Source: Trypethelium eluteriae
Lineage: Eukaryota
DNA: 40,228 nucleotides
Direction of reading: 5' to 3'
Assembly (NCBI GenBank): GCA_051942245.1
Contig: JAVECL010000019.1
Span: 62,001-102,228, forward strand
Shown here: positions 1,767 through 33,437 of the stretch, in pieces
Position numbering within the stretch: the first letter of the stretch is position 1
Layout of the letters: each line of letters starts with the position of its first letter
Made by a program: the position numbers and the translations under genes
The notes under the pieces: generated by a model
What the model was told of the DNA's origin: nothing
Database searches by the model: none
Seen by the model: the letters and a program-made list of their open reading frames with translations, nothing else

Positions 1767-4047
1767 TTTGAATTGGAACGAAGGTTGGGCCTCGTGCTGG
1801 TGATGGAGGCAGTGAAGAGAGGTAAGGCGTAACTGATGACTCGCACAGAATATTGTCTAGGGGAATCCAAGAAGATTCACTCAAGAGAGAGAACACTCAA
1901 ACGAATCGTATGCACACTGGTAGTGTGTATATATTGACATGACGTGCATGGGCCATTCAGTCATGGCAATCCGGGTCGGTGTGGCACTTCGCGGCGGTCG
2001 CTCCTGCCAGCAGGGCCTCTTGTCACCGTCGGAGATGCTGGAATTGTCCATTGCGTGTGTGCATGCATGCCTCGACCACCTGCGGCGCGTTATGGCGAGG
2101 GGCACTCAGGTGTTTTGGTGAGTGACGAACGAGGACTAGAGTGGATGAGGAAAACGGTCAACGGAGTCGGCTCCAGATTCAGCGCCAAGTATCCAGAGCG
2201 GCTGAAGACCCTTCCACGTTTGCCACGCTGCTTCCTCAATGCAGTCCGCTCACAGGCAGGCCGATTTATTGCTGAAGATTTTTTCATGAGTGTCTCGGAC
2301 GAAAAGACCTGCTTGGATTTTGTCGAGTGTTCGGCGAGATAGTCATGGTAACGATGCCCTTAAATACCTTATGGCTTGTTTGTAGGCACCAGTTCATCAT
2401 CATGGAGCATGATCAAAGTACAGAAAGGCTGCCTTCCCACTCGGCACAGCATTCGAGCAGGTGGCTTCTGATAATGTAGGATACCGATTTCGGCATAAAG
2501 CTCTGCTGAGGCACTTTCCATAGACTGCGTATCGATATCCAAGCTTTCTGAGAGGATTTCCACGATCCTTTCCGCGATTGAGCAAGGAGTTTGGCGTGAG
2601 ATGCGGCGCGAACCAACGACATCATACTTAGCCCCGCAATCAGCAGATATTCAAAATTTAATCAGCGCTTAGTCTACTCCAGTGGTGCCAGTGCTCTCGT
2701 CACTGCGATGACGCCATGTCTATCCGTTCGGTCCTGTCCATGTTGTGGCCCCTTTTCCCAATTCACATCGGCTCCATTCAGGGACCTGTACTCTACTTCG
2801 CTTGTACGTTTTATGCGCGGCCGGGGTAAGGAAGGAGGGACTTCGATTTTCATTGCCACGATAACTTGTGATCCTAGTCTCAGTTTCTATTTGGGTATCC
2901 AGCCCCGGGGGAGATCCATCAACAAATTACAACGGTCCCGAACCAAGTCACATATTGCGTCTCATAGAGGTCATGATCAGTCTTTTAGCTATTGATTGTT
3001 CGTAGACTATGAAGCGACGCTACTTTGAGCAAAGGTTAGAGCTAGTAAGAACCGCAGGAGATGATCCGAAAAGGAGTGTTGAAGAGAACAGAGGCAGTTG
3101 AACACGAAGCCACTCGATGGTTTTCAGGTCAATGCATATTAGTATACATCAGTTGGCTCATAGTATTGCATTCTTGCCTAACAGACCTTTCGTGTTTTGA
3201 GAGAGCAAAGAATGTCAATGCGAGTCAACGCGAGTCAAGCAGTGCGAGGTATTAGGCTGCAAGGCATCCTCAAAACATGGCAGGATTCTTCTCCAACAGA
3301 AAAGAGTCAGCATGTCTCGAACGCTCTTGCCGAACGCTTCACGCCAAGCCAAGAACCGGTGCACCAGGGGATACACTAGAAATCGTCGGCAGGGCATACA
3401 AGACCTCAAATGGCTATCTCTGGTTTGAACATTTCACCGTCTATAGGGGCACTCCTAGGTTGTACAGAATTGGAATGAAATATTAGGGAGATCTTCGATC
3501 TTACGGCTACTGAGAGGTTTTCCAACTCTACAACAGGTTTTACTGCGAGACCTCCCAAACTTATACCTCTAGGTCTCAAAACTTCGGTTAAACCAATACT
3601 CTAGTACCGACATTCTTTGTTTGAGCAGCGTCGCTCGAAGTAAGGCATTTCTAGGAGTGGAGGCAGAAGGATGAAGTTAAGCCACATTCCCCACGCTAGA
3701 GCACAAGCCCCTCGATGGTTGGAAGAAGACACGGAAGACTAACAGAAACGTGCGACGATCCAAGCCTCGTTCTTCTTATCACGAGGCCGATCGCATCGCA
3801 CCGCCTTCCGTAAATGACTATTTTCATTATGCTTTTTTAAGTCAGCCTTGCCGTTCAATAGGATAGCCTGAGCTCAGCCCCGTCATTCGCTCACTACAAA
3901 GAAATTTAAATGGGTAATCGCGACACATCACAGACTTAAAAACAACGTCCTCAACTTTCATAAAGGTTAATATAACAGCACCATTTCTCCACTTTCACAA
4001 TCGCTACCTCTACCCTCATACTTCGGACTTCACTTTAATACATTGCA

Positions 4048-5787
4048 ATGTCGGGAAAACAACCCGTCTCAGCGGAGCCATCGCTCGCCCGCACACTGGT
4101 TCCTAAGGAAGACTTAAATTCAGCGGACGACGATTCTGATGCATTTGATGGCACCGATGACTGGACCATTCCCGATCGTGTAGCCAAGCAGGATTATTTT
4201 GTATTCATCGACCATCGGCAGATCCATTCACTTCTTGATGCATTCTTACGACTGGATCATAATATGCAGGGCGGCAAGATTGGACACCTCATCTCCCGCA
4301 AAAGGTCGCATGCCTGGGGAGGAAGGGAGATAAATGTGGGACAGCTAGGTATACTCTCATATAAAGGACGGCCCATTGTGGTGACAAAGCCTGGCAACTA
4401 CTGGAACTGGAGCTGGACGCATTCTTGGTTAGGGCCCAATCTTGACCTGACGGCTGTGAATGAGGTCAACGGTCTCACATTTGCACAAGTCGGCCAGTCG
4501 GAAGCTATGGTTTGTCTCGATCCTCAGAATCAAGTCTTCATCGTGCGCAATGGAGGATTTGCAGCGTATGGCTCGAATGGTACCTACAAAGTCGTCGAGA
4601 TCGTGGACACCCTCAATCTGGGAGAAGAGTACGCAATCAGAGAATCGGACACCGACAATGACGGAACAACTCGTGTTCTGGGCTACAAGAAGGAAATCAG
4701 GCACAGAGTATCTGTCGGTAGTAATCAGAAACACGTCACCATTGCTACCTTCTTCAATGTTCCAGCACAGAATACCGTCGTCATACAGAATGCTGGTCAC
4801 CTGAAGGCCTTCGGCGCTGGACAACACGTCATTACCAACCCCCGATGTACGTTCCGCGGCTTCTTCACATTTGGAGAGCGCCAAAAAGCGTTCCGCACCC
4901 AGCCCGCCTACACGCTCGAAGGCGTTCCCGTAGTCCTGCACGTCAATCTCCGCTACCGCGTGGTCAACGCCATCGAACTCACGAAATCCTACGAATCCGC
5001 CTTCCAAGCGCTGAAGAACCCCGCGCAATCCGCCGTCAACGCCGTCGTCTCGCGCCTCTCGTACCAGCAATTCATGCGGGCGAAGAACATCGGCGGCGAC
5101 ATCCCAGACGTCGAGCACATGAGCTGGCTCGAAGCGTTCAAGTCGGAATGCCTGCGGTCGCTGGCAGAGCACGCGCTGGAATACGGGGTGCAGGTGCTGG
5201 CATTCGACGTGCTGGACCGACGCCTCGAGGGCAAGCTCGGCGACGACCTCGAAGACCAGGCGGAGTCGGTGCTCAAGAACCAGATGCAGGCGACGCAGAT
5301 CTCGCTGCAGAACAAGATCAAGACGGAGACGGAGCGCGGCAGGCTCGAGGTCGCGAATGTGCGCGCGCAGCAGGTCGAGGTCGATGCCAATGCCGATTAC
5401 TTCCGGACGTCCAAGGAGGCAGATGCGAAGTATTATCAGCAGCTCAAGGAGGCGGATGCGGAGGCGGAGAAGTTGAGGAGGATTGCGCAGGCGCAGGCGG
5501 ATTCGAATAAGATTGAGACGGAGCAGAAGGTGCGCGCTACGGAGCAGCTGGCGGAGGCGGAGCAGAAGCGGATTATGCTTGAGGGCCAGGGATATGCGTC
5601 GGTGACGTCGCCGCATGGGCAGCGGATGCAGCTCGAGAAGGTGGAGAAAGAGAAGTTTGGGAGTCTGCCGGAGAAAGCGACCGTCTTTGTTGGTCAAGGG
5701 CAAGGCGATGCGGGAGTGACGGACGGGTACAAGTTTGCTCAAGGGATGTCGATGGGAGGCGTAGCTGCAAGAGAAAGCCGATCATAG
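4048..5787 (+). CDS. SPFH/band-7 (flotillin/vacuolin-like) protein with C-terminal coiled coil, 579 aa, intronless
   Basis: ATG in a good context (GCAATGTCG) with strong codon bias. SPFH core: AYTLEGVPVVLHVNLRYRVVNA...AQSAVNAVVSRLSY...EYGVQVLAFDVLDR. It is followed by an Ala/Glu-rich coiled coil (EADAEAEKLRRIAQAQADS...AEAEQKRIMLEGQGYA). Confidence 0.85.
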   Translation: MSGKQPVSAEPSLARTLVPKEDLNSADDDSDAFDGTDDWTIPDRVAKQDYFVFIDHRQIHSLLDAFLRLDHNMQGGKIGHLISRKRSHAWGGREINVGQLGILSYKGRPIVVTKPGNYWNWSWTHSWLGPNLDLTAVNEVNGLTFAQVGQSEAMVCLDPQNQVFIVRNGGFAAYGSNGTYKVVEIVDTLNLGEEYAIRESDTDNDGTTRVLGYKKEIRHRVSVGSNQKHVTIATFFNVPAQNTVVIQNAGHLKAFGAGQHVITNPRCTFRGFFTFGERQKAFRTQPAYTLEGVPVVLHVNLRYRVVNAIELTKSYESAFQALKNPAQSAVNAVVSRLSYQQFMRAKNIGGDIPDVEHMSWLEAFKSECLRSLAEHALEYGVQVLAFDVLDRRLEGKLGDDLEDQAESVLKNQMQATQISLQNKIKTETERGRLEVANVRAQQVEVDANADYFRTSKEADAKYYQQLKEADAEAEKLRRIAQAQADSNKIETEQKVRATEQLAEAEQKRIMLEGQGYASVTSPHGQRMQLEKVEKEKFGSLPEKATVFVGQGQGDAGVTDGYKFAQGMSMGGVAARESRS

Positions 5788-5987: not shown

Positions 5988-8294
5988 TTACAGATCCACA
6001 AATTCGCCCGGGATCGCCTCCTTATTCCTCCAACTCTCGAGGTACTTAAGAACCTTCTTCGACATCGTCTCCGTGTCATACCCAAAGTGCTTATAAATGT
6101 ACTTTCCCGGAAGACTGTGACCAAACGTCTTCATGCAAATGCCAGCATCCGCATACCTCTCCCAACTCGTGGGCGCGTACGGCTCGATCACAACCGCCGG
6201 AACGCCCTCATGCCTTCTCAGCACATTGCGGCGGTACTCACGTGGCTGGGCCTCGAAGAGACGCTGACAAGGGAAGCTGACAACGCGAGCTCGAATGCCG
6301 TAATCGTCAGACAGATACGAAGCAACGTTCAGAGCAAGAGAGAGCTCCGCGCCCACGCCAATGAGCGTGACCTGCGGATCCGACACGTCGCGGACGATGT
6401 ACGCGCCCTTGCCCACTTTGGAACGGCGGGTGACGCCCGTCTGAGGGACGGCATGTCGGCTTGTGGAGATGATCGATGGTGTTCCCTTCGCTTTGATGGC
6501 CTCGATCCAGGCGCCGGCGACTTCCTCGCTGTCGGCTGGCCGGATGTACAGCATGTTGGGCATGGCTCGGAATAAGGCGGCGAGTTCGATCGGTTGGTGT
6601 GTCGGACCGTCTTCTCCTGCGCCGATGCTGTCGTGCGTGGCAACGTGGATGACCTGGAGATGCTGTAGGGCGCCCATCCGCACACCTGGCGCGGCGTATA
6701 TGTAGAACATGAAGAATGAACTGGTGACAGGGAGGATTGTCCGTGGGGCGTACGCAGCGAGGCCGTTGGAAATGGATGCCATCACGTGCTCACGGATACC
6801 GTAATGGATATATCGTCCCGTGTAATCGCCATCCGGTCCCGAAGTCGTCTTCAGAGAAGGCGGCTGGAAATCTATTTTTGACGGATATCCCATGTTGACC
6901 GACGGACTCAGATCTGCAGTACCCACCATAAATGATTTGATCTTATCGATGATGGGACCAAATACAAGATTGTTGGATTTGCGAGTTGGTGTGGGTGAAT
7001 CTGGAAAGCTCTGTGGAATTAATTCTTCAAAGTTCTCCGGAATTTGGCCCTCGATCCTCGCTTTGAAATCTGTTGCCACATTTGGATGTTTACTAGAGAA
7101 CTCATCCAGCACATGGTTCCACTCTTGCACCCACCTGTCACCCCGCGTAGGGATATCTTGGTAGAATTGTTTGACTTTTTCTGGAATGACGAAATGCTTT
7201 TCTTGGTCCCAACCGTACGCTTTCTTCATGTCTGCAACACTTTTCGTACCAAATGGGACACCGTGCGCGACTGCTTGGCCAGCCACCGCACTCCCTACGC
7301 CAATGATAGTTCGAACGTTAATGAATAAGGGCCTCTCCCGTGACGGATCTTTTCCCTTTGCTAGCGCCGCAACAATGGCCTCGACATCGTTGACACCATC
7401 TTCAATATCGACCACATCCCAGCCGCAGGCCCGCATCTTAGCGTTGACGTCCTCAGTATTGGTCATGTCGACACTGCCATCACATGTCACCTGGTTATTG
7501 TCATAGATAACAGTCAGGTTATTCAGCCTTAGGTGTCCTGCGTAGGAAAATGCTTCGCAACCGACCCCTTCTTGGAGGCACGCATCGCCTACCATGCACC
7601 AGGTGTGATTGGAGACCACCTCATACCCCGGCCGATTGTAGGTTGCCGCAAGGTGCTTTGTCGCCATTGCGAGGCCGACAGCATTTGCAATTCCTTGACC
7701 AAGCGGCCCTGTTGTAAGCTCAATGCCGTCGTGTTCGATCTCTGGGTGGCCAGGGCATAGGCTGTCCGGTCGTTCTGAATGATAAGATTTGAGCTGCTCC
7801 CATGTCATTGCCTTGTATCCAGTAAGGTATAAGTTGCAGTATTGAAAAAGGCAGGCATGACCTTGAGATTTGTTAGCTTGCTGTGTTCGGTGCTGAAGCC
7901 CTTTGGGCTACTTGCTGACCATTGGAAAGCACAAATCGATCTCGGTTGAACCAAGACGGATCGTTTGGAGCATACCGCATAGCATACTTCCAAAGAGCCA
8001 CTCCGATTGCTGCCATGCCGATGGCTCCCCTGAAACTCATCTCAGCTTGGTCGTAGCAACTGTTCCGTCGACTACCAACCCTGGATGGCCCATGTTGAAC
8101 TGCTCGCAGAGATCTGCAATGAGCAATCGAAAAGACTGCAATACTAATTGGATATCTTCACGACTATACTTTGCCGGTGCCGAAGGCGTAGACTCTGCTT
8201 GTAGGAGGCCATCGACCGTAGCCTTGCCATATGACGTAGAGCCGTTCGTGGTCCCATTCGGGCTCAAGCCATTCATGCTCAAAGTTTGAGCCAT
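5988..8294 (-). CDS. Transketolase-family enzyme, dihydroxyacetone synthase (formaldehyde transketolase)-like, ~732 aa, 3 exons
   Basis: Exons 8294-8080, 8029-7920 and 7861-5988 join in frame. Motifs: LIADLCEQFNMGHPGGAIG, NRDRFVLSNGHACL, LKSYHS...CPGHPE, TTGPLGQG, ThDP motif GDACLQEG...YDNN, HYGIREH, THDSIGAGEDGPTHQP. The ADLC.QF, LKSYHS and GDACLQEG variants fit the DAS-like paralog better than housekeeping TKL1. Confidence 0.93.
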
Positions 8295-8966: not shown

Positions 8967-10580
8967 TCAACCACAAACACTTTTCACCATCTCTTCTGCC
9001 TTCCATATCGCTTCTTTTGGCCCAACAATCGTAACCAAGGTCCCCAGGTATAACCCTTGCCAAAATGCCATGAGCATCACACAGCCAGTCAGACTTTTGA
9101 TGTTACCCGCGGCCTTGTGCACCGCGAATTTATTCCCATCCTTCTCCTGGCCCTTGTCACTAGGGATGAGGAACTGTCGTGCTCGATACGGGTTATGCCA
9201 AATTCTTGTTCCCGGCGCTCCAAGGTTGACGGGCGGACTCCAGTCTAACTCATCTCTCACAAAAGCCGTGATTTGCGACTTCATCTCGGAGAAGACTTGT
9301 GGCACCCGGTTCGGAGAGTACGAGATGGGCAGGAGGATGATCTGAGCCTTGAAAGGTTGCCGCTCGCTAGGGGGCTCAAGTTTTCGAGCAAACTGACGGA
9401 GCTTAGTGAGAGCGGTGAAGGCCTCGTTATTGAAGCAAAGTATGTAGTCACAATCCCGAAAGTGACGTGGTTGGACGCCGCGCCCATATTTATCACCCCG
9501 TAGAAGCTTGACCAGTTTTACGAGCTCCAAAGCCTTCGATTCCTCTCCGTAAGCGCTTTCTACACAGTCCAGAGCGCGTTGAGCTCCGACCTGTCGGCGG
9601 TCGAGAGTAAAAGGCACGGCTTTGGCTTCTGTAGCGCGTCTTGTCAGATCAGACTTGAGGAGATAGCCGGCACCTTCGATGCGTTTGGTAAAATAGTTCT
9701 GGGATCCCGTTGCAGCATGTAGACGGAGATACTCAAGATGAAATTGGGCCATGGTGGCAAGAGCGCCCTGGCGAAGATCGACGCAAAGGATCGGTGCTGT
9801 CATACGCATCTTTCTGTATCGAATCTCTTTCTTGTATGGCTCCAGCACTTTCTGGGCATCGCTTGGCGTCATTCTAGTGTCAGATTTGGCCAGATCAGCT
9901 TCGATGGTTTTCCATGATTGAGGGTCATCGCTACAGGCGGCTTGGATGACTTGGTTTTTTCCATATTTTTCTAGAATTGCTTGAAGCAGTCGATCTTTTT
10001 CGCGAGCTTCTCGATCTCTCCTACGAACGTCTTCTCTCAAGGCATTAAGAATTTTCTCTTGACGGGCAAATCCAGCTTGGACATCGGCGGCATTTTGAGC
10101 ATTGGCAGCTGGTGAATTGAGGAGTAGTTGCTTCGAGTTCAGTATCTGTAAAAATTGTCCTATCTGGGCGTTGTACTCCCTGATTCTTCTCAATTTGTCA
10201 TCAATTTTGCTGGTGTATTTCAACGGCAGCCAAACAGAATCCAACAGCCAGCCGCGATCCCATTTCTCCACCACCTTTCTGGTTTCTTTAACGTCATCCT
10301 CCAAGCGACTGAGGCAGGTCTCAAGCGGATCGTGGCTGATTGATGCTCAGTAGAGGCCTTTTCGCATGGGTGTCGCAATCTCTTACAGATTATGATCCTC
10401 AGGGTGATGGGTAAAGTATGCCTTTGTCAGCGGATCCAATTCTGTCAACATGGCAATGGAAGCACTCAACACATCCGTGGTGTCTTGCGTGAGTTGAGGT
10501 GCGTTCCGGCATTTTTCCGTTACATCTACTAAGAGAGTAATTACTGTAAAAATGTCTCCTACGCCGACACCGAAAGACAT
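8967..10580 (-). CDS. Uncharacterised multidomain protein (~520 aa, 2 exons): HeLo/SesA-like N-terminal helical domain + inactive LMW-PTP-like domain + degenerate KH domain
   Basis: Exons 10580-10387 and 10335-8967, with a 51-nt intron GTAAGA...ACTGAG...CAG, in frame. The N-terminus MSFGVGVGDIFTVITLL is typical of fungal HeLo-like/SesA domains. The middle ILCVDLRQGALATMAQ...RIEGAG...RGVQPRHFRDCDYILCF...KAQIILL resembles LMW-PTP. The C-terminus RQFLIPS...NIKSLTGC...LVTIVGPKEAIWKAEEMV resembles KH. Confidence 0.8.
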
Positions 10581-11288
10581 GTCCAGGGTGAAAGTGCGGT
10601 GTTACAGTATTCCAGAGTATTGCGAACTTTCGAAATGTAATCAGAACTCGCTCTGAGCAATATGGACAATTCGTCAAACAGAAGGTAGCCTCGATCCCCG
10701 GGGAGCGCAGTCGTTATGAGGATTCATCCACCCGGAGTTCAGCTGGCGAGGGCTCAGCCCCGCGCAGATCTCCACCTAGGCAACAGCGCAGCCACCCCAC
10801 GGGTTGGGCTGACAGTCATCAAGGTGAAAGTACAGCACAGAAACCTGCGCCTTACTGCTATCTTGAGGAGAGAGATCCAATGTCACTTTCAACTACTTCT
10901 ATAGCGTAGAACATGCCCAAGACTGTGCTACAGCTGCAGCAATAAGAGCACCTTCGCTATGCCTTGCAATCGAAGAAAACTTGAAGCCAATCTCGTGCAC
11001 CTAAGAAATTTTCTGTTACAAAAAGCAAATTGAAGCAGAAGACGGCATCATCTGCGGTAAGACATTCGTTTTATTTTCACCTAGCTAGCTTAACTAGGAC
11101 GAAAGAGATCAACTCGGCAGGCGCTCGTCATAACGCACATGCTGTTCAGGTAGATCAGGGCTGCATCTGTACGAATCCGCTACTACTTCTGCTAAGTATG
11201 ACTGCGAAGCACAAAACGCACAGCATCGTCAAGAACCGTTCTGTGAGCTAGCCGACCGCGACGTTGAGTCATATTCTGTAGGCGTCGT

Positions 11289-14200
11289 TCATGCGTCGAC
11301 AAGGACGTGTTGGAGCGACAACCGAGAATGGCAATCAGTCCAGTCGAGCGACGGGGAACTTGTGCAAGAAAATGGCTGGGGAGGTATATCAAGTTTTTCG
11401 AGCTTGCTAGCCAAGTTGCAAGCGGCCAAGGGCAGACTGTATGATCGTATACCAGGAGATGGTGGATTCGAAGGTTGCGAGTCTGATAGAGATGCTTCTG
11501 AAGATGTAAGACTTGGAACCGGCGATGGGGAGCGAGACATAGACCGACGAAACGTTGTCGTTCTCGGAACTGCCGTAGGTTCGTTCGAGGACCAGGTACC
11601 ACCACCCACCGTTATGTAATGGTTTGGTTTTGCAAGTGCTTGTTCTTCGCTAGATGGCCTCTTGGCATACCCCCCATTCCTTAATACTCTTCGTTTCGTG
11701 CGAAGACGTCGCTTATTTCCGCTCACACGTGTTAGGAGTAAGGGTGCAGACGGTGCGCTACCTGGTGGTGCAACCTCCACATGGGCATCATCCATCTTCA
11801 AGCCAATTTGTTTGAACACCTCTCGGATTGGTGTGAAAAAAATGAGTCGACCGTTGAAAGCCCACAGCAGTCCAAGAAGATGGTCGTCACTCTTGCCAAT
11901 AATCCAGGCTCCCGAGTCGCCTTGAACATCGTCTACCTCGATATCGTCCTGTCCACAAGGTATAATGCTCCATTCATGTGTCTTTGTCCCATCATGCTGC
12001 GTGGACGATATTGGAAATTGGTTGATCATGCCCTCGCGGTAGCCACTATTGCTTCCTATATAATAAACCATCTCACCTGGCTGAAACTCCCTACTCGCTT
12101 CGCATGACTCTCCAATCCCTTCCGGACTGTTAGCCTCGCGCTCAAAATGTTGGTGACTTAGTTCAATCCCCTTAGGATACCTAAATCTGTTCTTGCCGAG
12201 CCTTTCTTCATCGACTTCGAAGATGGCCCAATCCATGCGATGGAGTTTGACGTTGCCGTCATTCATTCGCGGATAGAAAGGGGTGGCGTGAGCATCTTCG
12301 GCCGAGCTCCTGACGAGTTTACCCAATTTGAAGTCTTCCTTCCTCCTGTTGAGATCTTCACGCCATCGTTCGTAGTGATTCACGAGGCTGAGCTGATCTC
12401 TGGGCACAGTTTCTGCCAAGGCTGACAAATTCACTTCTTCTTCAACCGGCGCTACCTCCGAATTTTCCATCTCCAAATTGAAAGTTCGCAGTCGTTCGTC
12501 AAAAACTTGCCCTAACTGTTTGATGTCGTATAGGGCCGGGGAGTAGACGCTATCGTCAGGAGTCTTGGGGCCAGAGCAATCTATGCATGCGTAAGCCTCG
12601 TCAATGAAATGCCCCACGGTAAGCATGAAAGGTCGTCCCCCAACTAGAATATATCCTCCCAAAGTAGCAAAGAAATGTTCACAGTGACTCGTTCCAATGG
12701 ACGCACTCATTCCTGGTCTCCTATAGTATCGTGATTGGTGAGGGACGATCACTTCGCCAGGAGCGTCGTCGGTAAATGAACCCCCAACAAGAGTCTTCAT
12801 TGTTCCATTATAGAAATAGATTGGGAGCTGGGGCCGATGATTCTCAGAGCATATATTTTTGATGCTTTTTCGAATGATGCTTCTAGTGACATCCGCTTGG
12901 GGCGCAGACTGGAACCGAATGACAGGTACAGGGTCATTATGGGCATCTTTCTGCCTTATCAGTGCTGCTGTGAAAGAATCATTGATCCCAGCACGTCGGG
13001 AGATATCAGACAGCAGGGGATCGATGAATTTCTCCCAAGTTATGACTGCCTCGCTGTCCTCAGAGCGATCAATGGAAAGGATCTCAACCCAATCGGGAGG
13101 ATTTTTCTTCCGTTGTTTCGGGCGAAATTTTCGACCAATTTTCTGGTAGATCCTAGGTCCAGTATCATCCGTTTTAGATTTAACAGAAGAGAGAAGAGAT
13201 CTCACGGGCGCGAGCAGGGGTTCCAACAGCGCTGTCGCTCTCTTTAAGTCATCAAAGGACTGAGCTCCACGTAGATGTATAGCGCCTTTCGTTCGGATGA
13301 AGACGGCAGAGACCTTAAGCTTCCTCAGCTCGCCCATTATTTTTGGCAGCTCTGTCGCTAAAATCAGCATTGTCCTCTCGTAAACCAAGAATTTACGTAC
13401 CAATATGCCCTAACAGGCTACAGATATCTCCTACTCTAATAGAGTCAATCAATGTCGTCTCAAATTGCCACATTTGTGGCTGATTAATGGGCAAAGATGT
13501 GCTCTGTCGAGCCGTGACAATGGCGTTGCGAACATCTCCCAACTCTGCAGCCTGAGAAGACATGAGTGTTGTAGAGCCTGTACTGTCGTCACAATGTGTT
13601 GGTGTGGAGGGTTCATGAAAGACTTCTTTGCGTCGCTTTGATGATGATTCTGATCCATTGTCATTAGGATGTTTCTTGTGATGAGAGAAAACGTCTCGTT
13701 CGTCGCTTGTTTCCTGTGATGGGTAAAGAGATTCTACATTGATGTTAGTGTTTACTCGCATGAATTATTTGCGGATGGTGGTTCCGGAAATGCACTGACC
13801 ATGTTTGGCTTCATCCCTTGTGAACTTCCAAGAGTCATTGGGATGGCTCGTATGCTTCTTCGAGACGTGCCTCTGTAGATCGATAGCTGAAGTAAAAAAC
13901 ACGCCACCGTTTCCCCCAAAGCCACAAGAAGGATTCTGGCATTGGAATTTCCCGTAAAACGATAAATCCGACACACAGTGAATCGACTTGAAATGCCTCT
14001 TAATCTTTTCCTCCCGCCTGAACATTTTGTGCTTGCCTTTTATCATGCATAATCCACAATGATAGCCGGTTTCGAATGGACCGTGGCATTTCTCATGCTC
14101 GTCTCGCTCTATAGAAGTGGGAAAAGTCTGCTTATTGCAATTTTTGTGACCGCATTGGTGTTGCTCAACTAGATGACGTTTTTGGTCTGATAGGCGGCGA

Positions 14201-14781
14201 AAAGTTTTGCCTTCACAGTCGAATGGACATCTCAGTACAGCAGTAGTTAGATCTTGAACATCATCTTGTCCGTCATCAGAACTAGAGGTAGAAGATCTGC
14301 GATCGAAAGCAATTGTATCGTTGTTAGGTTGTAACTCTGATGCACTCGCCGTGTAGTGGGACTCGATAGACGGATCGTTCGGACACTAGCATCATCAGAA
14401 AGTTGTAACTTCAGCTCAGATAAAAGGTTGATTCACAGTAAACTCCCGCTCAAATGGGTTGCTGCTGTGATGCAAAAAGAACGTAGAATTTCTCGAGCTC
14501 TCTTTGGAACTAAAATCAAAGGCCTCTCCCGGTCCCGGAAAGCCTCGCAATGAAGCATCTGAAGAGTTGTCTAGGAGATTGGGCAATTGAGGCGTCCAAC
14601 ACTGGTGTTGGGGATGCGAATATGTGAACTCCACTCCACAAACATGGAACCTGCTTTGGAAATCAAGCTCAGTATCTGCAGAGCCATAGTTCGGTTCGAA
14701 CAGGGATTCCTGAATATCATTGTTCATATTCATTCCAGTAAGAGTTCGCGTATAAGGCACCCAAGCATCAAAAGATCCCAT
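11289..14781 (-). CDS. C2H2 zinc-finger array fused to a trypsin/chymotrypsin-fold (Ssy5/NAL1-like) serine protease, ~1110 aa, 4 predicted exons
   Basis: Exons 14781-14437, 14385-13800, 13733-13401 and 13357-11289 (3333 nt, in frame; introns of 51, 66 and 43 nt). Fingers: CPFDC..HLVEQH, CGHKNC..HEKCH, CGLC..HFKSIH, CQNPSC..HVSKKH. Protease: RPGMSASIG..ATLGGYI..MLTVGHF (His), RMDWAIF (Asp), QGDSGAWI (Ser), LLGLLWA. The first intron has a weak donor (GTGAAT), so exon 1 is the least certain. Confidence 0.75.
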
Positions 14782-16506: not shown

Positions 16507-17254
16507 ATGGCGCAAATGATTGATTTTTCGAGACTCGAAGACATCGATACTGGTTTGGAACCAAGTCTATACAAGTAGCGAGCAAGCTGACTTCTCCAAA
16601 CTCTGAAAATAGAAGATATGTAGAGCCAGCCTCCGAGCCCTCCATACGTATCGATCCCTCTTCTACCTCGACTCTTCTATCGCGAAGTCTTCACGAGATA
16701 TCCAGACTATACTTTCTACAGTTCACAGATCAATCAGCACTGCGGATTCGAGCGGACCATAGAATTGCGATCTGTGATCCAATGCCGTTTCACTCTTGCC
16801 AACGATCAGAAGCATTTTAATATCTTGATGACTGACTGCCTGGACAACACTTGGAAGAGGCGAGAGATGGGGACTCAGATCATTTTTATCATGGGAGAGA
16901 CTTTCCACGCCGCACGACGTTAACAGATACGTCACGGAACATGGAGATGCCTTAGACTATATCGACTTCAACGTCCAAAAACCGAAAGTTTGGCGACTAT
17001 CGAAGAACGCGGTCCATGAAAAGATACTTGGGGGTGAAATTGAACAACCTTGCACCATCTGCTTCAAAGCTATAATGTTGGGCGATGAAGTGTCACGGAC
17101 AGAGTGCAAGCAAATTTACCATCCTCCGTGTATGGCGGATTGGGCTAACCTGGAATATGCAACCGGTCCCACCTGTCCGGATTGCCAAGCTAGGATTGAG
17201 GAAAATATTGAAGCGCAATCTTTTCGTCACGCTCGAGGCTCTTTCACTCGTTAG
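16507..17254 (+). pseudogene. Decayed RING-H2 finger gene
   Basis: The frame starting at 16832 encodes QPCTICFKAIMLGDEVSRTECKQIYHPPCMADW...GPTCPDCQARI (stop at 17252-17254). This is a RING-H2 with the first His ligand replaced by Gln. The upstream frame from ATG 16507 carries TAG/TGA stops, and a frame change is needed near 16900. Confidence 0.65.
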
Positions 17255-17862
17255 AAACCATAGAGTAGAGTAGCGATCCCCCATCCCATTATCTCTCCAT
17301 CTATGAACGATTCCCTAGGACAGATCCTTCGAGCCTGGCAGCGGTCATCATGTTGTCGATTGCTTCTACGTCTTCAACAGGTCTTGAAGTCAGAGAATGC
17401 ATGGTCTTCTACTTTATAATTACTACCTTCCGGGGCTTCTGGGCACAGGATAAGCTACACGTCACTGCAAGGATCAAGGCATCAAATATCTATGATTGAT
17501 GACATAAACTGAAACCTTAGTTCTCTCTTCTTAGCACGGGATTACTTCACGTGCACTCTTGGCTAAGGTAGGGTACCTAAGTGCTGTCGTAGGCTGAGCC
17601 AACCCACTTTTTGTAGTTGGTCTTACAGACGAGACGGTGTCCTCTAATACAATCTTACAAAATGATGGAATCTCATTTTACGGTGTATTTTGACGTCGTA
17701 TTCCGCAAGCATCGCCCGACTTTGCCATGCCGAGGAGACAATCTTATAGTTCCGTAGATAATGCCGCGGGCTTATGGTTCTCGCCAATATAGTTACGCTG
17801 AAACTCCGAATCTAAAGTTCCGAGTTGAATTATATACAACCAAGAGCACGATTTTCTACAAG

Positions 17863-19761
17863 ATGGCCAAGCATGAAAACTCGTTGGTTTTTCTCCATCC
17901 GCATCTTGAATCTCGACACAAGTCTTCCCGTCCCTCCTGTCGTTCCCATCGTGGCTGTCCTTCCCGAGCCCGCTGTCTCCGACGACGACATCGTCCCCCA
18001 GCGAGTCAAGCACTCCTCCCGACGCATGTCCAGGATCCGATCTCTTCTCCTCCACCGCACGCGCCTCGACGACGAAGTCTGCAACCAGAATTACACCGGC
18101 AGCGGCACCGACGACGACCCCTACATTGTCGACTACCTACACCACGACCGCCAAGACGCCATGAATTTCTCCAAGCAGCGAAAATGGGCCATTACCATTC
18201 TCCAATCGCTGTCCATGTTCGCAGTGACCTTCGCCAGCTCCGTATACGCCAGCGGCATCGAAGGCGTGATGCAGCGCTTCGACGTGTCCGCTGAGGTAGC
18301 GACGCTGGGCTTGTCGCTCTTCGTGTTGGGCTTCGCGCTGGGACCGCTGATCTGGGCGCCGCTGTCGGAGGTGTACGGGCGCAGGTCCATCTTTGTGATC
18401 TCGTACACGGCATACACGGCGTTCAGCGTGGCGGCGGCGTGCGCGCCTAACATCACGGCGTTGCTGGTTCTTCGCTTCTTGGCGAGCGCGTTTGGGTCGT
18501 CGTCGATGACGAATGCTGGGGGCGTCATTGCAGACATGTTCAGCAATATGGAGCGCGGACTGGCGACGGGATTGTTTGCTACGGCTCCCTTTCTGGGACC
18601 TGCATTTGGTATGTGGTGGATGTTCTTCTTCCATGCTGTCATTTTTGTCATTGTTGCCCTTGTACACTTGCAGATTCTTATCTTTTTTTTTTCAGGGCCC
18701 GTTGCTGGTGGTTTTCTTGGCGAGACCCAGGGCTGGCGCTGGATTCTCGGTTTGGTTGCCATACTGGGCGGTGTGACCTGGATCGTCACGACGCTGGTCA
18801 CTCGCGAAACATACGCGCCGTTCATTCTGCGATGTCGAGCCAAAGCCCTCTCCCGGATGACAGGAAGCGTATATATGTCCCGACTCGATGCAGGACAGCC
18901 GCCCAAGACGCTTTCACAGGAGCTCTCGATCGCTTTCACGCGCCCCTTGATTCTTTTGTTCAGCGAACCCATTGTCTTGCTGACGTCGCTGTACATCTCT
19001 ATCATCTACGGCACACTGTACATGTTCTTTGCCGGGTTTCCCATCGTCTTTCAAGTTACTCGAGGCTGGAGCCAGGGCACCGCCGGACTTCCGTTTGTCG
19101 GCGTCGCCATTGGCGTCTGTCTTGCCACGCTGGCGGCCGGCGTGGACAACAAGCGCTACGTGCGCCTGTGCGCGACGGCTGAGGCAGAAGGATGCGCAGT
19201 TGAGCCAGAAGCCAGACTGGGTGCGGCTATGGCAGGCGCAATTGTCCTTCCAATTGGTCTGTTCCTGTTTGCGTGGACGACGTATCCGTCGGTGCACTGG
19301 ATCGTGCCCATTATCGGCGCCATGCTTTTCTCGTGTGGACTTGTCATGGTCTTCATCTCGCTAGTGAGCTATCTTGTCGACTCTTGTACGGTTTTGATCC
19401 TTGCTTCGTGATCCTCTGCAACAATGCACATGCTCACCTGTGTACAGATGTCGTCTATGCTGCTTCTGTGATGGCGGTTAACTCGGTGCTTCGGTCCTTG
19501 TTCGCCACCGGCTTTCCGCTGTTTACCACCCAAATGTACGAGAAACTCGGGAATCAATGGGCGAGCTCCATTCCGGCGTTCCTAGTGCTTGGATGCCTGC
19601 CTTTTCCGTTCCTGTTCCATAAGTATGGTCCGCAGATACGCTCCAAGTGCAAGTATGCTTCCGAAGCAGCAAAGGTGCTGGAGATGATGCGTCGTCGGCA
19701 CGTCGTCGTGATTGGAGGTGAGCCAAATGGGCCAGAGAAGGAGGCTGAACAGGTTGTTTAG
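17863..19761 (+). CDS. MFS multidrug transporter, DHA1 family (12 TM)
   Basis: Motifs: [48 protein letters not shown] (motif A), [43 protein letters not shown]. Introns at 18609-18695 and 19386-19447. The start is uncertain (ATG 17863 with a short intron, or ATG 17873). Confidence 0.93.
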
Positions 19762-20050: not shown

Positions 20051-22639
20051 TCAATATCGACCAGTAAAATCCAGTTGCCCAATCTGCCACTCGTCCAGGA
20101 ATTCAAATCCTAGGAAATCCGCATCGAACGACGGAATATACTCACACTGCTCCAATTGGGACGAAACTACGCTGATCTGTGTGTGCGGCGAAGCGTACGC
20201 ATCCGCCATGCTGTTGTCTTGTGACTGCGACTGCGCAGGTCCTTGACCGAGAATGTTGGGCGGAACCAAGGACAAATTTTTCTTGGCAAGAATCTCCTCG
20301 AATATTGGCAGCGCTCTTTTCAGGGCGGGTATATCTTTTCCCTGGGTGAGAACAAGCATTGTCTGGCTGATGGATATCCGAGCCATGGAACGGACGAGGT
20401 CAGTCTCGGCTGGATCGAGGGCCGATTCAATGTGTAGAGCGAGCAGCGCAGTTATCGTGGTAATGCTGACAACCATTGTTAGCTCCATTGGTGCGTTCTA
20501 TGGTGCATGTCTGAAAAATGGGGAAATGGAAAGTAATGGACGGCACCTACAAAGATATGGGAAAGTCCTGAAGGGTACCACTCGTCAACACCCTCATGGC
20601 AATCGTATCCAACTCCAGAATAGCGGATCGAAGCCGCTGTTTGGCCCAATCGCTCCAATCCGCATGTTGGGACTGCTGCCAACAGCGTCGTATCAGACGA
20701 CACAAGATACACTCGAACCTGTAGCTCATGGCTTGAGCATTCAGATAGTACACGTCAGTCCCAGTATTCCCGCCCACGTGCATCTTGGCAGCGAGAGAAC
20801 TGCGCCATGCATCGAGTGGGTGCATCATTTGGCGAGGATCCTGCTGTGGCTTGCTTATCACAGTGGACAAACACTGTCCAACTGAATAGAGTTAGTCATG
20901 CTTATGATATCAGCTACAGATTGATTGAAGATAAAACGCAAAAGGAACAAGAAGAAAGAATCGAATAGCATCAACACGCACATATTTGAGCCAACTCGCA
21001 GTGGACAACAGGCAAGGCCCTTTGCTGAGGCGTGATCGCAGATAGCAAGCCGGATGATGCTCCCGAAACATCCTCCGCTTCGCAGTCATCTTCCGTCCTA
21101 AGCTTGATCGCGGAGGTATTTTCGAGTAGTCGCGAGCGTCTGGTATTGACAAAGACGTGGAAAACGTCTAAAGACTACGTAACCACAGTAAGCAAAAAGC
21201 AGGAAGAACAGAACACGGCAACAAGAAGAGCGACGTACGTAGAGAGCCCACCAGATCCTTCTGTATAACTTTAAGACTTTGCAAGGTTTGTCTTCTTGAA
21301 CACACCTGTCGGAGAGTCAGCAGGCACTAAGCACCCGCAATACATGTCACAGGTGTCATAGCCGAGGAATATGAAACGCACGTGTTACGCAGGTCAAGCT
21401 TGGTAGCAAGACGAATCGCGTTGTGGAACCAGTAGCTAAAGTCCCGGTCAGTGGGGCGGTCGAGAATGACCGTGCATAAGATGATCGATGCCTGCAGCAT
21501 CATCAACGGGTCATCTTCGGCGGCAAAGTCGTGGAGAAGCTTCGCCTTGGAGAAGAACGACTCTTGCGCGGCCGAGCGGCTGGCGAAGCCGCAGGCGGAT
21601 AGCACATCTGCTGGCGCATGGAGACTGGCTGGTGTCAATAGGACGCGGAGCAGAAATAACGAGCAGTCGCCGGATTGATAGCCGCGGATGAAATCAGCTC
21701 CGTCGATCACGGGAGCAAAAGGGTAGACGTGGTCAAAGTATGTCTTGATGAGGGTATCTCTGTTGTTTTTGTCTGTGAGTCGAAGACGAAGACTCAAAGG
21801 AGATGGAGGATGGGGATACAAGATTGTCTTACAAGTGACGGGGAGGAGGTAGATCAAAGACACCCTTCTTGACAAGATATTCATTGTCAATGTCGTCCAA
21901 TTGGGGTAGCTTGGTCCATAGACAATTCCGAGGAGTAAAACTGTCTTCCGGCCTTGGACGGTATGGGGTACTGTGTCGACTGGGTTCTGTAGTTTCTTTC
22001 ACGGCGTCGTTCAGGATATTGAGGTAGAGCAGATCTGGCTCAGTCTGACGTGGGCTTTGGAAGTCTAGGGAATTGGAAGTAGAAGGTTGTTTTGATTGAT
22101 CAGATTGATTGAGACTGTCTGACTGGCTACTGTTGGATGTAGCCGGGATGCCTGTAGTCTGGCAACGGTTAGTGGGACTTCTGAAGGATCGTCGAAGGAG
22201 CAGAAGAAAAGGCCGAGAAAGGAAGCAGCTGGGACAATGCCAATCATCTAAAACATACTCGTACATGGCTGGGAATCGGTAAATCATGTATCACTTTCCT
22301 ATGAGCCGCATCTATGTCAGCATGCACCTAATGGGCCATGAACTATGGACCATCCTATCAGTAATTAACTCACCTGGTTCTACGCTTACGAACTGGCAGT
22401 ACACAGTCCTTGGTACATTGCCTGCTGGTACAGCTGCTGCAGGGGAGACCACTCACGGCGGCATCGCACTTGACCTTGCGTACACGGCAGGGCACACATG
22501 CCTTGTTGGCTTTGTGGGCACGTTTCCCGGTTTCTCCCGCCCTCTGAGGTTCGCCATCAGAAGCAGGACTACTCATTGGAAGGGGAGGGGCGTTTGTTGT
22601 AAAAGGTTTAGGAGTCAGGGTGAGGGCGTTTTCCGACAT
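20051..22639 (-). CDS. Zn(II)2Cys6 transcription factor with fungal-specific TF (middle homology) domain, ~8 exons
   Basis: KANKACVPCRVRKVKCDAAVSGLPCSSCTSRQCTKDCVL (six Cys); LIKTYFDHVYPFAPVID; FFSKAKLLHDF; YWFHNAIRLATKLDL; LYRRIWWALY. Seven GT-AG introns can be placed that keep the frame open to the stop at 20051. The start codon is uncertain. Confidence 0.9.
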
Positions 22640-26278: not shown

Positions 26279-27659
26279 TCACAAGAGACCGCCGCTCGTA
26301 GGGTCTGTGTATCCATCATAGGCCTGTGTGTAGCCTGGGAACTGACTGAACTGATCCTTATTGATACTGTTAAGCTGAGGGCAGCCCAACGAGTTCGTCG
26401 CATTGTTCAACGCGGATCCGATCTGATCTTGAGCAGCACTGATGTCAGTGAAGAGACCAGAGAGGAGATCGGGAGTCTCCTGGGTCGTGAGTTCTAGCGC
26501 ATAACAGAGCAAGTTGTTTCCTTCGGCCAGGTTCGAGGCCGAATAAACGCCGCTTGTAAGATTTGACGGATCGATGCCAACGAATGAGTTCGTTGTACCG
26601 GTGTTGCCTCCGATAGAACCGAATTCGGGGTACTTGACCAATTGAGCGACGGCGTCGAGGCTGAAGTATGGGATGGTGTAGGCATCCACGGGATGCCGGG
26701 TATACCAGTTATCTGGAATACGCTCGTGGCCGGGAGTATATGTAAAGTCGCCATCTTCTCCTGTGATTGAGTAGAAGGATTTCAAGACGTCGCCGGTTAG
26801 ACGACCCTCGGGATATTCAGCAGATTTGTTTGCCATGAAGCGATAGATGAAGGACCAAGCAGCAGGTTGGGCAGCGACGCCGCTAAATGGCGCGTTGAAG
26901 AAGTAGGGGTTATTGTCAATGCTCTCTTGGAAGCGAGTTGCGCGATAATCGGTGAGGAGGTCAAGGTCATAGTTATCGGCTGCTTTGCCGAGGTCGTATA
27001 GCGCCTGAAATTGCGATAGTTGGACAAGGTAGTCGTTGCCGTATTGGTATAGATCTCCACGGGTCGGTGAAGCATCACCCTCGTACTTGTTGTGCGAACC
27101 TGATATTCCTTGAGGCTCTCCGAGAAGGCCACCAAGCGAGACAAGAGAGGTGGGTCCACCGATGGACCAGCCTGTGAGATCACCGTCGAAGACGGATCCG
27201 TAAATGGCCAGAAAAGTTGAGAGATCGACGCCCATGCCAAAGACTGGGGGGATGTTAGCCGTAGGGAGGGTCTCGATGAGGAGAAGCGGTCGAACCTTTT
27301 CCTGTGCCTTCTATGAACTCGGAGATCGTCGCAACTCCGTTGTGCGGGAGATATCCACTGTTGTCTGGTCAGCCCTGTGTCCGTACTTCTGCTGAGAAAT
27401 CTTGAGCAGCTTACTGATTGGCCATGGCATTCAACCCAGGGCATGGTCCGCGCTGGTCGCCTTCGCCAGGAGCAACGAAGGCGTATTGACCAGTTGTGTC
27501 CACATACTGAAGGGACGGGTCAAAGGGAGGTGTGACGCCAGGAGCTTGACGCTTCACTGCCTTCCCATTGCTCTCCACATTGTTTAAATGTGCAAGAATA
27601 TCTGGGTAGGCTGTGCCGAAGCTCACCAATGCGAGACTGAGAAATAAAGGTGACTTCAT
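26279..27659 (-). CDS. Secreted heme-thiolate peroxidase / unspecific peroxygenase, long type, 3 exons
   Basis: Signal peptide and KR propeptide. DQRGPCPGLNAMANHGYLPHNG (proximal Cys, spanning intron 27414-27358), second intron 27295-27244, SHNKYEGDASPTRGD, PGHERIPDNWY, and a C-terminal Cys pair. Confidence 0.93.
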
Positions 27660-32106: not shown

Positions 32107-33437
32107 CTTCGCGATCCGCAAAGCTCGAAGCCTTTTAACCAATTATTACCAAATATAGCGGCGCAACGGAATGCAAATCCAGTGATAGGGGATATCGAAG
32201 AGGCTAGGGCATGGTGAAGGTAAATCTGCCTGATTTCGAGGCGTGGCGGATCTGGGGTATAGAAAAACGCACAGCGTTGCGGGGCACGGCGTAGAGATTC
32301 AAGTGGCGAAGCGGCGAGAATATCTTTCTTTTCGTTTCAAGAGCGTGACCTCGAGGAGTCCCTTCGAGCAATGATGTAGAAGTTCTGACATCACGGGGTG
32401 AAGTATCATCCACACGAAGTCGTAGTGGCAGTGATGATATAGATGACCTTGGAGCCTCATGTGCGGGCATGCCACCCTGCGTCCGAGGCACGTGATAGAT
32501 ACTTTGTGACCAAAATCCCCGTCCTTTTTCATCTCGAAGGCAGCGACATACACTTGTCACTTGCAAACATTTACGCGACTCAATATGAACTAGGTAATCT
32601 GTTGACACCACAAGTAACACGAATTTGGTACGAAGCAATAGTGATGTATCGTCAACCAGGCTGATATCGGTGGCGATTACATCGAATGGCGCGTGTTGCC
32701 GCCCAGAAACACGCACAATCCTGACCAGACGGGGTCGTTGAGAGACAAGACTATACATGGCGGACCGTATATCTCCTCAAAACCCAAGTTCTAGTATTCA
32801 TGTTGTTTTTCTACCTAGCATTAAATATGCGGCACAAAAAACCACTGCACATCATCGATTGCGACAGCGAAGACCCCGGACGACGTCATTGTGGGGGTGT
32901 AGCATCAGCACTGACGGCAGCCACATGAGACGAAAAGCAATCAGCCACAACTTCTGCTCAGCAATCAGCATGCAGTTTCGCAGCATGAACGGCAGATCGA
33001 CGCTAGGAAGTTTCCCGACAGGAAGGAACGGCAGGCTCGCTTGCTGTCGATCTCGATATGTCTTGCCCATCTCTCCAGACACGCGTTCTGGATGGCAGCT
33101 TCGAGCTCCACCGCTGCCGTCATGATGCAAAAAAAAACCTAGCCTCTTACCCATTCCAAACCACCACTTTCTCCATCGCAAGGTGCCCCTTCCAATCAGT
33201 TTGCCATCCTGGAAGTTGGCATTCCCATCCGCCTCTTCCCATAATCTTCCTCGTCCCAAAAGCCTACTTTTGACTTGCAACCCATTTGACTTCTTTGCTT
33301 TACTACCTGTGTCCTGTGTCTTGTGTCCTGTGTTTTCCATTCTTCTTTTTCTACAATCCCTTGTTTTCTTAAGACTACCAATTACCTACCTAACTCTGCA
33401 ATCTCGGCTGGGCCACAGTACCATCAACATCTCCAAG

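Follow-up and report, generated by a model that had tools for sequence, protein, structure and literature searches.

Two of the fungal signalling routes that have been studied end, according to the published accounts, with a protease of the Ssy5 type cutting a transcription factor that carries C2H2 zinc fingers, namely the SPS route of yeasts (amino acids) and the Slt route of Aspergillus (cations and alkaline pH). Ssy5, the protease within the SPS sensor for amino acids in Saccharomyces cerevisiae (MEROPS/Pfam Peptidase S64), is reported to cleave itself at A381/A382 and, after phosphorylation and degradation of its prodomain, to cleave the C2H2 factors Stp1 and Stp2 (PMC12958826), and in a survey of more than 600 fungal proteomes Ssy5 peptidases were described as 'single domain proteins', with S64 present as a single copy per genome (PMC5567314). 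SltB of Aspergillus nidulans is described as an N-terminal pseudokinase followed by a C-terminal chymotrypsin-like, weakly Ssy5-like protease in which Ser-1142 is essential; it is reported to autoproteolyse, parting its N-terminal domain from the protease, and to cleave the three-finger C2H2 factor SltA (PMC4985261, PMC4557415). In rice, NAL1 is reported to be a nuclear and cytosolic protease that acts on the transcription regulators FZP and TPR2 (PMC12012508). Here we describe a gene of Trypethelium eluteriae that joins four C2H2 fingers to a protease of this kind in a single polypeptide. It lies on the minus strand, at 14781..11289, of a stretch of 40,228 nucleotides (GenBank assembly GCA_051942245.1, contig JAVECL010000019.1, positions 62,001 to 102,228 of the forward strand), which is referred to throughout as the window. 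The reading that we tentatively prefer, its chances being nearly balanced, is that the product is a proteolysis-gated transcription regulator.

The minus-strand open reading frame (ORF) track of this region consists of four stop-free fragments, parted by three short stretches with canonical fungal intron signals, and the original prediction had joined the fragments through GT-AG introns into one frame of about 1110 amino acids (aa). A single frame is indeed obtained, although its length is 1108 aa: the gene has four exons and three GT-AG introns, and the spliced coding sequence of 3327 nucleotides (nt) ends at one terminal stop and contains no internal stop. The parts of the gene are as follows.

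14437..14781, minus strand: exon 1, aa 1-115, with the start codon at 14781-14779 and an alternative ATG at 14733-14731
14386..14436, minus strand: intron 1, 51 nt, GTGAAT...CTGAT...TAG, which would bring in an in-frame stop if retained
13800..14385, minus strand: exon 2, aa 116-311 (ending in a split codon), which carries the fingers
13734..13799, minus strand: intron 2, 66 nt, GTCAGT...CACTAAC...TAG
13401..13733, minus strand: exon 3, aa 311-422, a disordered linker and the first half of a small alpha/beta domain
13352..13400, minus strand: intron 3, 49 nt, GTACGT...GCTGAT...CAG, phase 1
11289..13351, minus strand: exon 4, aa 422-1108 and the stop, with the rest of the small domain, a basic loop, a domain like the ATP-binding domain of NAL1, the protease and the tail
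11291-11289, minus strand: stop codon, checked by translation

The ATG at 14781 is the first in frame, an in-frame stop lying upstream at 14850-14848, and a model from Viridothelium virens (P0002, 1098 aa) has its start where the second ATG, 14733, would correspond. The 1108-aa product is collinear with P0002, with 892 identical residues, and the sole gaps come from the start codons, which lie 16 residues apart, and from a single repeat of 6 residues, none of them at junctions 1 and 3. At junction 1 the residues EFT/CPND of the window product stand against EFT-CPND in P0002, and at junction 2 AKH/ESL stands against ANH-ESL. The predicted intron 2 (13799-13734) was borne out, as was intron 3 except for its acceptor, which had been placed at 13358. 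That acceptor is also in frame (1110 aa) but adds two residues absent from every homologue; when aligned to P0002, acceptor 13352 gives 22 gap columns and a score of 4757 against 24 columns and 4745 for 13358, and an unbiased scan of all GT..AG pairs against the family profile likewise chose 13352, by which 13358 is the less likely of the two. Each of the three introns contains an in-frame stop, and retention of intron 2 or 3 would give a finger-only protein without the protease, ending in ...TIRK or ...GHIGT before the stop, which is a possible second route to a free finger protein.

That the joined fragments are one gene has to be weighed against the explanation that two adjacent genes, for a small zinc-finger protein and a separate protease, have been wrongly joined, or that the gene model is some other artefact. 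The public annotation of the genome offers P0001 alone, a hypothetical protein of 807 aa from the Trypethelium eluteriae assembly that is 100% identical to the window over 13762-11289 (-), and the unspliced finger frame does end at a stop at 13767-13765. However, P0001 begins (MRVNTNINV...) at an ATG within intron 2, which is canonical and whose CACTAAC branch site is perfect; the model lacks exons 1-2 and all four fingers, and its start abuts the finger-frame stop and leaves no intergenic space. The sequence is conserved over all three junctions, and fused models are present in two other annotated genomes (P0002, P0006). With the same order and strand found in every long homologue and in most of the metagenomic loci described below, the two-gene explanation is largely refuted and must be considered highly improbable.

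The fusion is conserved at the level of both protein and DNA, as a search for architectures combining C2H2 fingers with a trypsin-like protease, suggested with the original prediction, has made clear. A profile search over 1.84 billion representatives returned 1099 relatives at E <= 1e-3, a number that falls to 444 at 1e-10 and to 194 at 1e-30, all counted as cluster representatives, and the genera named among the homologues are Trypethelium, Viridothelium, Bathelium, Zopfia, Kalmusia and Icmadophila. A hidden Markov model (HMM) of the finger module, built from long forms, was run on 160 homologous protein models and found the module in 23, including all 19 of those in which 250 residues or more precede the protease module, always in the same order; three more (P0004, P0005 and P0126) begin inside the fingers. 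No other N-terminal Pfam domain was found among 27 long relatives. Public databases already list two of the fused models, both uncharacterised and labelled 'C2H2-type domain-containing'. A word-based search recovered P0002 alone with the finger exon as query, and only P0002, P0001 and P0160 with the long-form alignment as query, the last being a Trypethelium subeluteriae model (1460 aa) that is without fingers and merged with the downstream neighbour.

Metagenome contigs, when scanned, yielded 11 loci with a relative of the protease, and for eight of them (L001, L002, L003, L005, L007, L008, L009 and L010) a six-frame HMM search placed the finger module on the protease strand and upstream (E 3e-45 to 1.5e-11). 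These eight amount to six distinct loci in that L007-L009 share identical statistics. A ninth, L004, opens at the contig edge with the end of finger 4 and the KR-x10-KRxK motif of the linker, and L006 and L011 are truncated within the protease; every metagenome locus with enough upstream sequence has fingers. A phase-1 intron at the alignment position of window intron 3 was found by the scan in L001, L002, L005 and L008 and by eye in L010, for which the automatic junction scan chose a different, lower-scoring intron than the direct reading; the scan is also doubtful for L003 (GTTTTA donor, phase 2). In a FastTree phylogeny of 137 protease modules, finger-bearing tips occur in every major branch, often as sisters to 'short' forms, by visual reading of the tree, without a support test.

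Some of the counts do go against so wide a distribution of the fusion. The N-terminal extension is below 30 residues in 128 of the 160 models (four of these being long forms mis-binned through a spurious first domain), no finger match was found in four models with extensions of 147-204 residues, and some of the short models may be genuine finger-less paralogues. The remaining models start at or within the protease module, many of them exactly at the beginning of exon 4, as intron-blind gene calls would, and many short models look like exon-4-only calls, in the way that the public model of the window gene is truncated. On these comparisons of sequence the fusion is real, and it is probably ancestral to the family. 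Bathelium mastoideum has two paralogues (P0004, P0005), with both models starting inside the fingers, and L002 and L003 are different family members from records with one sample prefix; the family can therefore be multi-copy, unlike S64.

The N-terminal half of the predicted product looks like a transcription factor, in that a disordered, acidic region is followed by four C2H2 fingers and by a motif resembling a bipartite nuclear localisation signal (NLS). The first 160 or so residues are predicted to be disordered and are acidic and Ser-rich, with a net charge of -17 over residues 1-160, and the region of P0002 equivalent to exon 1 has a predicted local distance difference test score (pLDDT) below 50. 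The features that follow it are these.

13852..14229, minus strand: four C2H2 fingers, aa 168-191, 193-216, 225-251 and 264-293, from the ligand pattern and translation
13624..13680, minus strand: bipartite-NLS-like motif KK-x11-KRRK, aa 329-347, which includes SKRRKE (13641-13624)

All four fingers, two of which had been missing from the ORF track when they were first proposed, have the ligand pattern C-x2-5-C ... H-x3-5-H, which is conserved in relatives. In 20 long homologues all four zinc ligands are aligned in 7 for finger 1, 17 for finger 2, 19 for finger 3 and 13 for finger 4, and fingers 2-4 therefore form the conserved core; in one alignment of long forms the finger C and H columns are invariant. 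In the P0002 model the finger region is predicted with block-mean pLDDT of 72-90 as four helices, each after short strands. Beyond the fingers, aa ~296-393 form a disordered linker of about 100 residues between the two halves, the corresponding residues 279-391 of P0002 having pLDDT below 50 and residues 392-463 being ordered. The KK-x11-KRRK-type pattern within this linker occurs anywhere in 9 of the 20 long homologues and at the homologous post-finger position in 8, where shuffling would lead one to expect 0.27 sequences, and an NLS-like linker motif is present also in L004 and L010; it may serve in nuclear import.

The fingers are atypical in several respects. No zf-C2H2-type Pfam family matched above threshold, the best match for the window being Zap1_zf1 (20.4 bits against a cutoff of 27.2, E 4.3e-4), and the matches of homologues to Pfam zf-C2H2 and zf-H2C2_2 are likewise sub-threshold; the module matches the KLF10 fingers weakly (E 0.031), and an atlas look-up placed it, at 0.93 and with 148 features in common, among generic clusters of mixed fungal C2H2 type. 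These sub-threshold matches, the long loops in fingers 3 and 4 and the frequent loss of finger 1 lend some weight to the idea that the protein is a signalling protease of the cytosol whose finger module, instead of binding DNA, serves as a prodomain for regulation or for binding a partner (protein or RNA binding, inhibitor or scaffold), taking the place of the SltB pseudokinase or the Ssy5 prodomain, and whose substrate is a separate transcription factor. In SltB and Ssy5 alike, large N-terminal non-catalytic regions are reported to control the protease (PMC4985261, PMC12958826). Yet finger 2 in distant homologues has a TGEKP-like linker and aligns as a classical finger of the DNA-binding sort, fingers 2 and 3 keep their zinc ligands in 17-19 of 20 long forms, the finger module is basic (net charge about +10) and the NLS-like motif after it is conserved, and on balance a purely cytosolic role of this kind seems improbable. 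In the proteolysis-gated reading the same module would bind DNA.

The C-terminal half is, on its sequence, a serine endoprotease of the Ssy5 / SltB / NAL1 kind with its catalytic residues intact, and would be expected to be active. Its structure was predicted by AlphaFold2 (AF2) for exon 4 from a 106-sequence alignment (mean pLDDT 78.6, with 402 residues at 90 or more), and the full-length homologue P0002 was folded with 18 long homologues; both models agree on the layout. A 'prodomain-like region' ahead of the protease had formed part of the original prediction, and such a region is present, though it can now be refined to a small alpha/beta domain, predicted at aa ~394-480 and spanning intron 3, and a second domain that superposes on the ATP-binding domain of NAL1. 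From the basic loop onwards the features of this half are as follows.

13101..13175, minus strand: disordered basic loop, aa 481-505, net charge +8, holding RKFRPKQRKK, with pLDDT below 50 at exon-4 residues 60-79
12750..13061, minus strand: predicted alpha/beta domain like the NAL1 ATP-binding domain, aa ~519-622, by superposition
11763..12722, minus strand: predicted chymotrypsin-fold serine protease domain, aa ~632-951, block-mean pLDDT mostly above 90
12611-12609, minus strand: triad His, H669 (TVGH), H247 in exon-4 numbering
12233-12231, minus strand: triad Asp, D795 (MDWA), D373 in exon-4 numbering
11915-11913, minus strand: triad Ser, S901 (GDSG), S479 in exon-4 numbering
11292..11732, minus strand: disordered tail rich in Ser (18%) and Pro (11%), aa 962-1108, pLDDT below 50
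11714-11688, minus strand: KRRLRTKRR, in the tail, checked by translation
11531-11508, minus strand: SPSPVPSL, aa 1029-1036, a conserved motif of the tail

The complete His/Asp/Ser triad, the Ser/Pro-rich tail and the basic stretches SKRRKE, RKFRPKQRKK and KRRLRTKRR all proved to lie where the original prediction had them when their coordinates were verified by translation. H669, D795 and S901 are invariant across the 106 aligned sequences and are set in a chymotrypsin (PA clan) fold, with PA-clan cores matching at up to Z 17.7; a helical insertion sits between His and Asp. Homologues of exon 4 were found at E = 0 to 1e-33, and an atlas look-up of the protease gave generic leads (Ascomycota hypothetical clusters, with S64 at 15%). 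The Pfam family Peptidase_S64 (PF08192) is matched by 33 of 61 family members at E <= 0.01, with a best value of 2.2e-9, and by these matches the family to which the window protease belongs is related to S64, the window protein itself scoring below membership. The basic loop at aa 481-505 is a candidate cleavage site or second NLS. Within the otherwise poorly conserved tail, SPSPVPSL(T)SS is kept family-wide, its Pro and Leu being invariant in 18 sequences and its Pro present in at least 90% of 61; it resembles a proline-directed or CK1-type phosphorylation or docking motif and is possibly regulatory, by analogy with the phosphodegron of the Ssy5 prodomain. A signal peptide had been held to be absent, and neither a signal peptide nor a membrane span was found by hydropathy alone, without a dedicated predictor (maximum 19-residue Kyte-Doolittle mean 1.22; N-terminal 10-residue maximum 0.22); a secreted protease is ruled out on that hydropathy alone. 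A substrate preference suggested by the acidic residues before GDSG (VDDVQGDSG) was dropped, as these positions vary among relatives. Taken as gene model, domain order, intact conserved triad, disordered linkers and conserved fusion, the architecture can be put forward with high confidence.

The kinship with Ssy5 and NAL1 that had been named from the outset is upheld, for NAL1 by fold and for Ssy5 by the weak Pfam match. The predicted exon-4 model has NAL1 (PDB 8PMG, 7Y77) as its best fold match, at Z 22.4, rmsd (root-mean-square deviation) 4.7, 307 aligned residues and 13% identity (VIA-align), with exon-4 model residues 97-537 set against NAL1 chain residues 89-457, and ten NAL1 entries top the fold matches (Z 20-22.4, 298-314 aligned, rmsd 4.7-5.0, exon-4 model 96-537 against chain 88-459); a Foldseek match of the predicted model to NAL1 has E 6.8e-11. 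In NAL1 residues 89-172 are described as the ATP-binding domain and 184-458 as the protease (PMC12012508), and the window protein is predicted to have the same order, with a fold like that of the ATP-binding domain directly before a trypsin-like protease. The likeness does not extend to sequence: the window has no Nal1_C match, 3 of 61 relatives match weakly (best 3.5e-4), and a profile of 10 family members found nothing among PDB sequences at E <= 0.1. NAL1 is moreover a plant protein without zinc fingers, unlike the window protein. The protease core taken alone superposes best on the bacterial S1E proteases, such as Streptomyces griseus protease B and alpha-lytic protease, at Z 16-17.7, rmsd 2.5-2.9 and 16-22% identity over 174-187 aligned residues, the match running between exon-4 model residues 210-529 and the whole mature enzyme. 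S1E enzymes, however, are secreted and have their own pro-regions, whereas the window protein has a long helical insertion between His and Asp and extra N-terminal domains and is without a signal peptide.

The fold matches bear directly on the main rival to a self-cleaving regulator, a DNA- or chromatin-tethered protease. In this explanation the protein stays uncut and its fingers bring the protease to genomic sites or DNA, where it would cut other chromatin-bound proteins, for example transcription factors or co-repressors, in the manner of NAL1, or remove proteins bound to DNA, a role ascribed to the trypsin-like protease FAM111A. It draws on NAL1 being the closest solved fold, with transcription regulators as its reported substrates, on the presence of the FAM111A protease domain among the fold matches (Z 12.4), on the basic NLS-like stretches that flank the protease on both sides and on the family-wide conservation of the fusion, which would be expected if fingers and protease must work together. 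On the other side, the linker of about 100 disordered residues and the acidic, activation-domain-like N-terminus would be superfluous for mere tethering, and the fungal relatives of known function, Ssy5 and SltB, are both reported to cleave themselves. A tethered protease is thus possible, if rather unlikely.

By analogy, SltB, which the original prediction did not name, is the most telling functional precedent for the regulator that we favour. As it is described, SltB resembles the window protein in being an intracellular protein of the Pezizomycotina with a C-terminal chymotrypsin-like protease and a large N-terminal non-protease part. Its residues H1033, D1036, G1140 and S1142, by their published numbers and without an alignment, are spaced as H792, D795, G899 and S901 of the window protein (His at D-3, Gly at S-2, 106 residues from Asp to Ser; PMC4985261), and these matching spacings hint at close kinship of the two protease domains. 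In the family of the window protein 126 residues separate the catalytic His from the Asp that follows it, owing to the long helical insertion, and this distance, applied to D1036 by the published numbers only, would place the catalytic His of SltB near 910-940. The 2015 paper on SltB is reported to have proposed H925 and H939 for this role, while the 2016 model considered H1008 and H1033 (PMC4557415, PMC4985261); H1033 would match a conserved non-catalytic His of the window H-x-M-D-W motif. The two proteins differ in that the N-terminal part of the window protein consists of four C2H2 fingers and not of a pseudokinase, neither the window protein nor any of 27 long relatives having given a kinase-like Pfam match, and in that the finger protein is here in cis, whereas SltA is encoded by a gene separate from SltB. 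Ssy5, the closest though weak Pfam relative of the window protease, is likewise intracellular and of chymotrypsin fold and shares the His/Asp/Ser triad and the long N-terminal region, but is without zinc fingers.

Self-cleaving transcription regulators are already known as an idea. The bacterial LexA and lambda CI (peptidase S24) and the animal MYRF (peptidase S74 domain) are such regulators: in each a single chain binds DNA and also carries a peptidase domain that cleaves it, and the cleavage changes gene regulation. The idea proposed for the window protein is the same, its self-cleavage being inferred. The DNA-binding folds, peptidase folds and catalytic types of LexA/lambda CI and MYRF differ wholly from those found here.

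A proteolysis-gated regulator is favoured because the N-terminal half is like a transcription factor, two disordered basic segments lie between folded modules and the protease is intact and of a type that cleaves itself and cuts C2H2 proteins. The built-in protease would act in cis or between copies to cut a disordered basic segment, for which the linker near aa 296-393 and the loop at aa 481-505 are candidates, and the cut would free the finger module and its NLS from the protease half to act on genes in the nucleus. One polypeptide would then do what SltB and SltA in Aspergillus, and Ssy5 and Stp1/Stp2 in yeast, do as separate proteins. Such a cleavable architecture is predicted for P0002, in which residues 279-391 and 464-498, with pLDDT below 50, separate well-ordered modules. 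In this scheme the protein would be expected to be proteolytically active, to cut itself at one of these candidate sites, to bind DNA and to be imported into the nucleus. The original prediction had proposed such a self-processing factor, or else a nucleic-acid-sensing protease, on which none of the results bears.

Several observations weigh against it. The geometry differs from that of the precedents, for in SltA and Stp1 the cut is reported to take off an N-terminal inhibitory part and leave the C-terminal fingers, whereas the fingers of the window protein are N-terminal, and NAL1 is reported to cut other proteins inside a hexameric cage, with no mention found of self-processing (PMC12012508). 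Docking of the linker or the tail in the active site was not predicted with raised confidence in either AF2 model. Basic NLS-like stretches are found on the protease side too (aa 495-504 and 968-976), and therefore the whole protein might enter the nucleus uncut. Just 7 of the 20 long forms keep finger 1, and the match of Peptidase_S64 to the window, at 19.7 bits (E 3.4e-4), falls below the gathering cutoff of 23.6 and spans exon-4 ORF residues 441-533, that is, profile positions 585-680 of 692 alone.

The neighbourhood of the gene is mixed. The region immediately downstream, 8970-10601 (-), holds an ORF at 8967-10346 (459 aa) that matches no Pfam family and is 78% identical to residues 934-1460 of P0160 of Trypethelium subeluteriae, and on that identity P0160 seems to be the protease gene and this neighbour run together in one model. 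The other ORFs of the window that were assigned by Pfam are the following.

4039-5787, plus strand: SPFH/Band 7 ORF
5988-7907, minus strand: transketolase ORF
16832-17254, plus strand: small zf-RING_2 ORF, upstream of the finger-protease gene by about 2 kb
17816-19411, plus strand: MFS transporter ORF
21327-21998, minus strand: Fungal_trans ORF (fungal-specific transcription factor domain)
26279-27310, minus strand: Peroxidase_2 ORF
29653-32142, minus strand: 829-aa ORF with PA, zf-RING_11 and zf-RING_2
39545-40228, plus strand: GPR_Gpa2_C ORF (G-protein-coupled glucose-receptor-like)

The neighbouring transketolase, SPFH/Band 7, MFS and RING ORFs belong to unrelated families, and no functional link to the finger-protease gene is seen.

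Full-text literature searches found no description of a fusion between C2H2 fingers and an S64/NAL1-like protease. The annotation as it stands hides the architecture, through the truncated model of the window gene, the merged model of the sister species and what appear to be exon-4-only fragments for most family entries. If the protein does cleave itself, it would be a compact, self-contained switch from signal to gene and would represent a third Ssy5-like pathway, in filamentous and lichen-forming fungi, giving a direct handle on the origin of protease-transcription-factor pairs. A bolder reading, which we regard as doubtful, is that it is the founding example of a large ancestral family of the Pezizomycotina in which a C2H2 factor and its activating protease of the Ssy5/SltB type share one polypeptide, a eukaryotic PA-clan counterpart of LexA or MYRF that cleaves itself on a signal and so releases its DNA-binding half, the signal being possibly read through the conserved, phosphorylatable SPSPVPSL tail. 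Were this true, the family would be a 'Rosetta stone' linking the split pairs SltB-SltA and Ssy5-Stp1/2, and it would hint that protease-gated C2H2 signalling in fungi descends from, or repeatedly yields, such fusions.

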